From assembly GCF_013122565.1 (NCBI RefSeq), contig NZ_CP053258.1: 64,000 bases of DNA; one strand, written 5' to 3'. Both the position numbers and the translations under genes were made by a program. This DNA comes from Escherichia coli. Lineage in GTDB: Bacteria; Pseudomonadota; Gammaproteobacteria; Enterobacterales; Enterobacteriaceae. Each line of letters starts with the position of its first letter. Position 1 is the first letter of the stretch. Below the pieces are notes generated by a model. It made no database searches. It saw only the letters and a program-made list of their open reading frames with translations, and was not told the origin of the DNA. This document shows positions 49,467 through 50,552 of this stretch, in pieces.

Positions 49467-49682
49467 TCAGAGCTCGGCCCGGCCACGTAAAACCTTGCGT
49501 GCCAGCCGCTTCTCCGTTTCCGTTGCGCTGCTGAACATACCGTTGTCGCTGATTATCCTTCTCAGCTCTGCGCTACTCCTGCTCTCCAGCCGGTCATGAA
49601 TCGCTCTTACCTCCTGGGCACTGTACAGAGCGTCTTTTGCAACTTCTTTAGCCAGTTTTCCTGCGGTATCCCAGAATCCCAT
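49467..49682 (-). CDS. Small hypothetical protein (71 aa)
   Basis: ORF MGFWDTAGKLAKEVAKDALYSAQEVRAIHDRLESRSSAELRRIISDNGMFSSATETEKRLARKVLRGRAEL; 12 nt downstream of preceding small ORF, same strand. Confidence 0.55.
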   Translation of the reverse strand: MGFWDTAGKLAKEVAKDALYSAQEVRAIHDRLESRSSAELRRIISDNGMFSSATETEKRLARKVLRGRAEL

Positions 49683-49694
49683 CTTATTTCCCCT

Positions 49695-49841
49695 TTACAG
49701 GTAACCGTTATCTTTGCCCCACTCACACCCGCAGTCCCTGCACATCCAGCCATCGGACCAAGGAATAGTGTCGTAAGAGCCACAGTCCGGGCAGCGTTTG
49801 CCGGAAGTCGGGTTACCGGGGATGATACGTCTGATTTTCAT
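49695..49841 (-). CDS. Small zinc-ribbon protein (48 aa, two CxxC pairs)
   Basis: Read by eye: ATG at 49841 preceded by AAGGAT; MKIRRIIPGNPTSGKRCPDCGSYDTIPWSDGWMCRDCGCEWGKDNGYL; starts 3 nt after the WYL regulator stop; not in ORF track (below length cutoff). Confidence 0.55.
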   Translation of the reverse strand: MKIRRIIPGNPTSGKRCPDCGSYDTIPWSDGWMCRDCGCEWGKDNGYL

Positions 49842-49844
49842 ATG

Positions 49845-50552
49845 TTATCCTTCTGTTGCGGGTTGATGTGGTTCAGGGACGAAGCCGGAAAGCACTTCGC
49901 CAATGAACCGGAAATGAGGTAATGCCTGTAAAAAATCCGGACGGGACAAGATGTCACGCACGGTGGTGTCGGGGGTAAAAATGTCGGGATGAAGTGTGAC
50001 GCCCCGGATATCAGCCAGTGGCAATGCGATGATGCGTGTCTGACGTGCCCCTGTCAGATACCAACTACCGGCATGAAGAACCAGGCGGTAGGGTGAGATA
50101 TCCGTATGGTTGCATCCGTTGCCGCGCAGTGTCACTTTCCGGCATTCCTGGACAGCATTTACCAGCCGGATAAAGACCTCACTGTCGGTGACGGGCTGTG
50201 CAGAATCCCCCTGCCAGATAAGGCAGGGGGATTCACCCGCCCCCCCCAAAAGTGAGCTGACCAGATGTCCGTCAAGTCCCGGAAACAGGGACTTAACGCC
50301 CGACTTACGGGCAAAAGTCATCACCGCCAGCTCTCGCTGACGGCTGCCGGACAGCAGACGGTACTGGCCCTGTCGATACTCCAGGTCTAGGTACATCAGT
50401 CGTTCACGAAAGTCCCGACGCAGGGTGCGAACTGACACATCAAACTCAGCTGCCAGTTTGCGTATATCCAGCGTTTCACCTGCCACCAGACGACTTATAA
50501 TTATCGACAGTCTGACGGCAAGCCGGTCATGGCGACGCTCAGCCTGAGTCAT
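49845..50552 (-). CDS. WYL-domain transcriptional regulator (YfjR-like; HTH + WYL), 235 aa
   Basis: Translation MTQAERRHDRLAVRLSIIISRLVAGETLDIRKLAAEFDVSVRTLRRDFRERLMYLDLEYRQGQYRLLS... (HTH), C-terminal ...YRLVLHAGSWYLTGARQ... (WYL motif). Confidence 0.8.
   Translation of the reverse strand: MTQAERRHDRLAVRLSIIISRLVAGETLDIRKLAAEFDVSVRTLRRDFRERLMYLDLEYRQGQYRLLSGSRQRELAVMTFARKSGVKSLFPGLDGHLVSSLLGGAGESPCLIWQGDSAQPVTDSEVFIRLVNAVQECRKVTLRGNGCNHTDISPYRLVLHAGSWYLTGARQTRIIALPLADIRGVTLHPDIFTPDTTVRDILSRPDFLQALPHFRFIGEVLSGFVPEPHQPATEG

Follow-up and report, generated by a model that had tools for sequence, protein, structure and literature searches.

In a 64,000-nucleotide stretch of the Escherichia coli contig NZ_CP053258.1 (the window), three closely spaced genes on the minus strand encode a YfjR-like regulator with a helix-turn-helix (HTH) and a WYL domain, a 48-residue zinc-ribbon microprotein (Zn48) and a 71-residue helical protein (p71). 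On balance, this unit is probably best read as an autoregulated three-gene module of a genomic island, with microproteins serving the mobile element. Zn48 and p71 are real protein genes under purifying selection, the zinc ribbon is the partner that stays with YfjR-like regulators over evolutionary distance, from Escherichia to Providencia, and the p71 family comprises widespread mobile-element proteins that recur beside tiny open reading frames (ORFs) with four cysteines (Cys4). The unit consists of the following features, with lengths in amino acids (aa) and distances in nucleotides (nt).

50552..49845, minus strand: HTH-WYL regulator, 235 aa, YfjR-like and of the COG2378/YafY type, identified by Pfam, PADLOC and YfjR homology
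49853..49848, minus strand: Shine-Dalgarno sequence GAAGGA of the Zn48 gene, inside the final regulator codons and 6 nt 5' of the Zn48 ATG
49841..49695, minus strand: Zn48, Cys4 zinc-ribbon microprotein, 48 aa, identified by its ORF, CxxC pairs and codon-level conservation
49694..49689, minus strand: Shine-Dalgarno sequence AGGGGA of the p71 gene, read from the sequence, 6 nt 5' of the p71 ATG
49682..49467, minus strand: p71, helical protein, 71 aa, of a broad uncharacterised family, identified by its ORF, codon-level conservation and profile search

The regulator and Zn48 genes are separated by 3 nt (49844-49842) and the Zn48 and p71 genes by 12 nt (49694-49683), and both small genes appear to be translationally coupled to the regulator. 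A terminator scan revealed no terminator inside the three-gene unit, and no Rfam RNA family was detected in 47800-52200. An earlier, sequence-only reading of this DNA had given the ORF coordinates, the two gaps and the two CxxC pairs correctly; it had also placed all genes on one strand, as found here, without saying that this is the minus strand. Its proposal of an operon is likewise supported by the present analysis, in which the three genes are bounded by conserved upstream boxes and a hairpin 3' of p71.

The coding status of the small ORFs was assessed with the Nei-Gojobori method in 11 fetched related E. coli loci, which share 78-99% DNA identity. The ratios of nonsynonymous to synonymous substitution rates (dN/dS) were 0.07 for Zn48, 0.13 for p71 and 0.21 for the regulator, nonsynonymous changes were depleted relative to synonymous ones (Fisher tests, p 1e-8 to 7e-14), and the start, stop and Shine-Dalgarno sequences of the small ORFs were intact in all loci. 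Amino-acid conservation, on which the sequence-only reading had staked its small ORFs, was thus found for both of them. The possibility that they are chance non-coding ORFs or remnants might be raised by their very short length, the lack of family annotation and the inconsistent naming of p71 as a transposase, but it is already refuted by codon-level conservation, and the intact translation signals and homologues across genera leave it a negligible chance. In addition, the NCBI Prokaryotic Genome Annotation Pipeline (PGAP) already annotates both small genes as hypothetical coding sequences in every RefSeq E. coli locus fetched, so the description of the Zn48 ORF as easily missed applies to metagenome gene callers, which often skip it, and not to PGAP. 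A literature search for ribosome-profiling evidence gave no result, as the small ORFs were neither listed in the O157:H7 Sakai small-gene supplements nor mentioned in an Enterobacteriaceae microproteome preprint.

The Zn48 protein (MKIRRIIPGNPTSGKRCPDCGSYDTIPWSDGWMCRDCGCEWGKDNGYL) contains CPDC at residues 17-20 and CRDC at residues 34-37, separated by 13 residues, with a fifth cysteine at residue 39, and all four CxxC cysteines are invariant in the Zn48 family alignment. This is the layout of a zinc ribbon, with two CxxC knuckles and a spacer of the length of a short beta-hairpin, and an AlphaFold model of Zn48 as part of a fusion placed short strands at residues 25-28 and 31-34, with low confidence; metal binding is predicted. 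Residues 16-47 hardly vary, and this holds also for a locus with a p71 partner of just 43% identity. A profile search retrieved 64 clusters, all of them stand-alone proteins of 29-72 aa, which share the core CPDCGS.D.IPW..GWMCRDCG.EW (type A). Zn48 fell below the cut-off of all named zinc-ribbon families in Pfam and NCBIfam, including PF07282 (Cas12f1-like_TNB) and PF08271 (Zn_Ribbon_TF), the best sub-threshold match being PF07282 (17.6 bits vs a cut-off of 26.3).

Comparison of gene content across loci revealed which parts of the unit travel together. The three-gene arrangement, whose conservation in CP4-57-like elements the sequence-only reading had named as a check, is kept in 10 of the 11 related E. 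coli loci; K-12 CP4-57 itself lacks the small ORFs, with yfjR followed by ypjK-yfjS-yfjT and neither microprotein. The remaining E. coli locus (L011) and Salmonella diarizonae (L016) have lost the regulator except for its final codons (ACAGAAGGATAA) and retain intact Zn48 and p71, and this motif is thus kept 5' of the Zn48 gene even where the regulator is gone. A distant island (L033/L034) carries the Zn48-p71 pair without a regulator, and in Pectobacterium the regulator is followed by p71 with no zinc ribbon. Islands in Providencia encode a YfjR homologue (38% identical) and, 4-21 nt further on, a Zn48-family ribbon with no p71; other proteins, including a YfjT-like one, come after the ribbon. 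Given this pairing without p71 in Providencia, the coupling of regulator and zinc ribbon is the deeper conserved link, and p71 is an optional third gene.

The regulator itself scored above the Pfam cut-offs for WYL (PF13280, residues 126-184, 25.5 bits vs 21.8) and for an N-terminal HTH_DeoR domain (residues 14-50, 23.5 bits vs 21), and it matched the PADLOC WYL model over residues 10-168 (E=3.6e-18), which is a CRISPR-associated, generic accessory model. A literal W-Y-L occurs at residues 164-166. Against K-12 YfjR, it is 49% identical over residues 1-231 (tblastn, E=6e-62). The profile search that had been proposed as a check therefore confirms the WYL domain, the YfjR-like HTH-WYL identity holds over the full length, and the protein extends the YfjR/COG2378 WYL family by a new member; the PDB contains no structure detectably related to it by sequence. 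The identity to K-12 YfjR is distributed as a mosaic, with 92% in the HTH (residues 1-60) and 27% in the WYL region (residues 121-195). In locus L009, the last 40 residues are 88% identical and the middle 40-55%. This pattern suggests recombination, or a rapid divergence of the sensor domain on a fixed DNA-binding module, and the fast-diverging WYL domain may act as a signal sensor. In E. coli PapRG-06-5 (L001, 6546-7252), which is 99.4% identical to the window, the regulator is a frameshifted pseudogene and the small ORFs are intact, such that this allele is a natural regulator-null; the copy in the window is intact.

Upstream and downstream of the unit, the following candidate regulatory elements were identified.

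50725..50739, minus strand: Box 1, palindrome GGACGCATCCTGTCC (GGACA-N5-TGTCC), candidate operator, 173-187 nt 5' of the regulator ATG
50617..50631, minus strand: Box 2, TGTCCATACCCTGCC, a degenerate Box 1 that forms the second candidate operator, 65-79 nt 5' of the ATG
49438..49459, minus strand: GC-rich, terminator-like hairpin ACAGGGTCTGTGCAGGCCCTGT with a weak T-run in the window, starting 8 nt after the p71 stop

Alignment of the 214-nt region 5' of the regulator showed two blocks that are near-invariant while their flanks diverge. Box 1 is the sole match at no more than one mismatch in the window, and its position is constant, at -186 to -189 from the ATG, in all but one of the nine other loci compared, K-12 yfjR and Pectobacterium included; the exception is L009, with a matching box at -75. 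Box 2 likewise precedes both K-12 yfjR and the Pectobacterium homologue. Taken together with the near-identical HTH, this conservation makes Box 1 and Box 2 the best candidates for operators of the regulator. The most likely arrangement is that the regulator would bind these two GGACA-N5-TGTCC-like boxes 5' of its own gene and thereby autoregulate the unit. A review from the laboratory using gSELEX (genomic systematic evolution of ligands by exponential enrichment) gives the yfjR operon as the regulatory target of K-12 YfjR (PMC8249747).

At the other end of the unit, every locus examined has a terminator-like hairpin 3' of p71. In the window, the hairpin lies in a region that folds at z=-3.1, and its position is conserved; hairpins of unrelated sequence with T-runs occupy the same site in L009/L014 and L033, with a weaker one in Pectobacterium (L018). 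The hairpin may thus end or attenuate the transcript ahead of the secreted-protein genes. Its CCCTGT cores were also considered as a third operator, and this was rejected because such cores occur at about 0.5 per kb in the window and unrelated terminator hairpins take its place elsewhere.

A profile search with p71 against 1.84 billion representative proteins retrieved 117 clusters (50% identity) at E<=1e-3, mostly of 65-85 aa, with the consensus MGFWD..GK.AK...LE.KS..EL..I....GFF..S..EK..A..IL..RG, and a scan of a genome collection with a narrower alignment yielded seven loci. p71 had nothing significant in Pfam, NCBIfam, PHROGs or PADLOC, a PDB profile search gave no match, no Pfam domain was present in the 55 family members scanned, and tblastn of 50,697 phage genomes with the window p71 and one distant member also gave no match. 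An AlphaFold model built from a 55-sequence alignment consists of three helices with low confidence (predicted local distance difference test, pLDDT, 62). Homologues are labelled as transposases in L002, L010, L011 and L014 and in many NCBI proteins, and also in UniRef. This label was rejected for a 71-aa protein with no detectable catalytic or DNA-binding domain of a transposase, and the naming is probably a propagated misannotation.

The genes of the p71 family lie beside tiny Cys4 ORFs of several sequence types, on the same strand, mostly within about 40 nt and mostly unannotated. Such a neighbour was found in about 10 of 15 contexts (5 of 10 when related arrangements were collapsed), whereas the background density of such ORFs is no more than 0.06 per kb of strand (binomial p = 1e-9; 1.5e-4 for the collapsed count). 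On 4.4-kb ColE1-like plasmids such as pSP291-3 (L013), p71 is preceded by a type B ORF (47 aa) and followed by a type C ORF (51 aa), and these two Cys4 ORFs lie at 2560-2703 and 2160-2315 on the minus strand. Type C also follows p71 in Dickeya, Citrobacter and one metagenome contig, type B precedes it in Aeromonas, and other p71 contigs carry a 60-aa Cys4 ORF, a DnaJ-like CxxCxGxG ORF or a 35-aa Cys4 ORF. Furthermore, the set is linked by an additional N-terminal domain (GKT..NVG.FAGKLG), to which the proteins P0118 and P0123 join p71-like sequence. On its own, this domain is encoded directly 3' of a type-A zinc ribbon on a contig of a Rep3 plasmid, and it also occurs 5' of ZnB-p71 in Aeromonas.

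Among the Cys4 types, type B proteins have 43-47 aa and type C proteins 48-52 aa with the motif LPHTCP.C...FGFRT...NQSWCR.CR, and they are mostly unannotated on enterobacterial plasmids of 3-6 kb; on some 3-kb plasmids, a 192-aa protein with the annotation helix-turn-helix domain-containing ends in a type C sequence (L035). Unusual relatives of p71 are P0084, P0092, P0118 and P0123; among them are a 158-aa protein in which the p71 C-terminal motif is fused to a domain that, by eye, is acyl-carrier-protein-like, and a 792-aa protein made of many repeats resembling the ...NGIFRTPTEDEI... motif.

Two tiny, closely linked genes on mobile elements could also be a toxin-antitoxin or addiction pair, which would keep the island or small plasmids stable and to which the WYL protein had been added as a regulator. 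The related ZnB-p71-ZnC cassette is among the very few cargo items of the 4.4-kb ColE1-like plasmids in several genera, and the island already has YeeU/CbtA, both of which would fit such a role. However, Zn48 and p71 match no toxin-antitoxin or defence model in Pfam, NCBIfam, PADLOC or PHROG, p71 looks soluble and helical with no enzymatic or membrane-toxin features, and its order relative to the zinc ribbon varies. Moreover, each gene occurs alone, which an obligate pair of toxin and antidote should not tolerate, and this explanation is considered quite unlikely. The recurrence of the p71/Cys4 pairing, also on 4.4-kb plasmids that have hardly any room for further coding sequence, points to a selected mobile-element function.

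The unit sits in the conserved backbone of a genomic island of the CP4-57/CP4-44 type, and a literature search on the island module found nothing specific to it. The neighbouring genes in the window are as follows.

50767..51678, minus strand: YfjP/YeeP-type GTPase, the conserved upstream neighbour (MMR_HSR1, E=6.5e-16; 50% identical to K-12 YfjP)
48951..49361, minus strand: 136-aa protein with a signal-peptide-like N-terminus by eye (phrog_8968, E=3.9e-37; dN/dS 0.13; its own conserved Shine-Dalgarno sequence)
47947..48885, minus strand: 312-aa Ivy-like protein with a signal-peptide-like N-terminus by eye (Pfam Ivy match sub-threshold)

The position of the unit just 5' of secreted-protein genes, as claimed in the sequence-only reading, agrees with these 136-aa and 312-aa ORFs, whose signal peptides were judged by eye. 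The 312-aa protein stays below the Pfam Ivy threshold (15.5 bits), which its Pectobacterium homologue exceeds (23.2 bits); some homologues bear the PGAP name 'Ivy family c-type lysozyme inhibitor', and a terminator-like site lies 3' of this gene (47922..47895). Both secreted-protein genes are conserved along with the cassette, and a shorter relative of the 312-aa protein adjoins an IrmA-family gene in L033. The order in 10 of the 11 loci is GTPase, regulator, 48/49 aa, 71 aa, 136 aa, Ivy-like protein of about 312 aa, DUF932, antirestriction, RadC and DUF987, followed by YeeU and CbtA where the fetched stretch extends that far; the 136-aa gene is absent in L009 and the regulator in the eleventh locus, L011. 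This gene order is kept in the fetched loci of E. coli, Salmonella and a Klebsiella IncHI1B plasmid. The small-ORF pair was found in 68 of 5426 complete E. coli genomes (about 1%), always on the chromosome, and the carriers include O157:H7 and other Shiga toxin-producing E. coli genomes.

Beyond the GTPase gene, a slot holds cargo that varies by strain (L002-L009, L040), namely a TrlF ATPase, a type I restriction enzyme, QatA/B, a helicase and a DNA methyltransferase, and in Providencia genes resembling the cyclic-oligonucleotide-based antiphage signalling system CBASS (Cap15, CD-NTase); the island family has the look of a hotspot for defence genes. The corresponding slot of the window is taken by a low-GC pair of overlapping genes on the minus strand (52168-52656 and 52649-53521) encoding a 162-aa protein and a 290-aa winged-helix protein. 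The latter is annotated by PGAP as winged helix-turn-helix domain-containing and has a hydrophobic segment, ToxR/CadC-like by eye. The pair is placed between the backbone and a fimbrial operon whose start is at about 55993. At the other side, a tRNA-Ser(GGA) gene (42956-43043, plus strand) immediately adjoins the island at its CbtA/YeeU/DUF4942 end, opposite the usual integrase end, and no integrase was seen among the window ORFs inspected.

Defence genes a few kb off in many loci raise the possibility that the true target of the WYL regulator is the variable defence cargo beyond the GTPase and that the small ORFs are unrelated passengers. WYL regulators often control adjoining defence systems, as BrxR and CapW do, and the PADLOC WYL model matched here is a CRISPR-associated one. 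Nevertheless, the GTPase gene intervenes and the regulator is transcribed away from the cargo, the same regulator cassette accompanies quite different cargo, with none recognisable in the window, and the zinc ribbon follows the regulator across genera. In addition, the boxes precede the regulator's own gene, and the 64-kb window has no second good Box 1. This explanation is therefore held to be very unlikely. None of the results demonstrates the control of defence or DNA-damage functions that the sequence-only reading had associated with WYL regulators; the only conserved candidate operators precede the regulator's own gene.

The same surroundings bear on a further explanation, in which the microproteins would be anti-defence or establishment factors, comparable to the neighbouring antirestriction protein. 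They would be switched on as the element arrives in a new cell, and the WYL domain would sense the single-stranded DNA that comes in. The backbone holds ArdB/KlcA-type antirestriction, DUF932 and RadC-like genes, and the defence cargo next door (TrlF, Qat, type I restriction-modification and the Providencia CBASS-like genes) is variable. Some p71 relatives lie near DarT/NADAR and AAA_15 genes, the p71 family occurs on islands and plasmids and not on phages, and the WYL regulators PafBC and DriD have been reported to respond to single-stranded DNA. Neither microprotein, however, is similar to known anti-defence proteins, the total absence from 50,697 phage genomes would be unusual for anti-defence genes, and the argument is drawn from context alone, such that we give this explanation a rather small chance.

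The reading of the unit as an autoregulated island module with mobile-element microproteins has to be weighed against several results. A study using chromatin immunoprecipitation with exonuclease digestion (ChIP-exo) showed no DNA binding by K-12 YfjR (PMC8464067), and a scan for promoters gave no consensus sigma-70 site from the boxes to the regulator ATG. The hairpin in the window has no good T-run; with its weak T-run, some transcription is likely to continue into the 136-aa gene, and the unit may extend further. L001, the closest relative, keeps the small ORFs next to its frameshifted regulator, which indicates that the small genes are independent of an intact regulator. Furthermore, p71 occurs without the zinc ribbon in L018, L022 and L029-31 and the zinc ribbon without p71 in L037-L041; since each is found alone, they are not an obligate pair. 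Type-C zinc ribbons were found on 104 small plasmids with unrelated neighbours, and part of the association between p71 and zinc ribbons may thus reflect generic clustering of small ORFs on mobile elements. The AlphaFold model of a Zn48-linker-p71 fusion was of low confidence, with a pLDDT of 62 and a predicted template modelling score (pTM) of 0.36, and no biochemical function could be assigned to Zn48 or p71.

Within the preferred reading of an autoregulated island unit, Zn48, presumably made from the same transcript as the regulator, may work with or on the regulator, in the role of a co-regulator or anti-regulator, or may be a small binder of nucleic acid or protein. The zinc-ribbon/p71 cassette as a whole would probably serve the mobile element, through regulation, establishment or maintenance, and not the host. 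A bolder version holds that the YfjR-type WYL regulator and the type-A zinc ribbon form a new two-part switch, with the ribbon as co- or anti-regulator, and that p71 with interchangeable Cys4 microproteins, sometimes with the extra N-terminal domain, forms a widespread and unrecognised establishment, maintenance or anti-defence cassette of islands and very small plasmids; this combination is possible, though unlikely. The importance of the finding is moderate, since existing annotation lists the two small genes as hypothetical and their function is what we infer. YfjR is a K-12 transcription factor with conflicting binding data, and WYL regulators often serve as switches on defence islands and mobile elements. 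The candidate operator, the microprotein partner and the natural variants, in which the regulator is deleted, p71 is absent or the ribbon is absent, make the function of YfjR directly testable. The cassette also illustrates how much microprotein content gene callers still overlook.

Among known systems, the regulators BrxR, CapW, PafBC and DriD (COG2378) share with the window regulator an N-terminal HTH, a WYL domain and a location on DNA that is mobile or rich in defence genes, and a ligand-responsive switch is the expected logic of HTH-WYL regulators. These four proteins are longer than the approximately 235 aa of the window regulator, which is not directly beside a defence system. A search of PADLOC-DB v2 for defence systems matched only the WYL accessory model to the regulator and nothing to Zn48 or p71 below E=1e-3. 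We know of no translationally coupled zinc-ribbon microprotein partner described for BrxR, CapW, PafBC or DriD. Zn48 has a weak, sub-threshold resemblance to the C-terminal zinc ribbon of TnpB/Cas12f (PF07282), whereas the core of its family is distinctive; the Ogr/Delta proteins of P2/P4, to which Zn48 may be loosely likened, are tiny Cys4 proteins of mobile elements. The closest counterpart is K-12 YfjR of the cryptic prophage CP4-57 (b2634), which resembles the window regulator in its island family, WYL motif, HTH (92%) and Box 1/Box 2. The K-12 operon carries ypjK-yfjS-yfjT, whereas the unit in the window has Zn48-p71-p136-p312 in that place, and to our knowledge an operon with this content, combining a zinc-ribbon partner with a gene of the p71 family, is an undescribed variant of the WYL-controlled operons of mobile elements.

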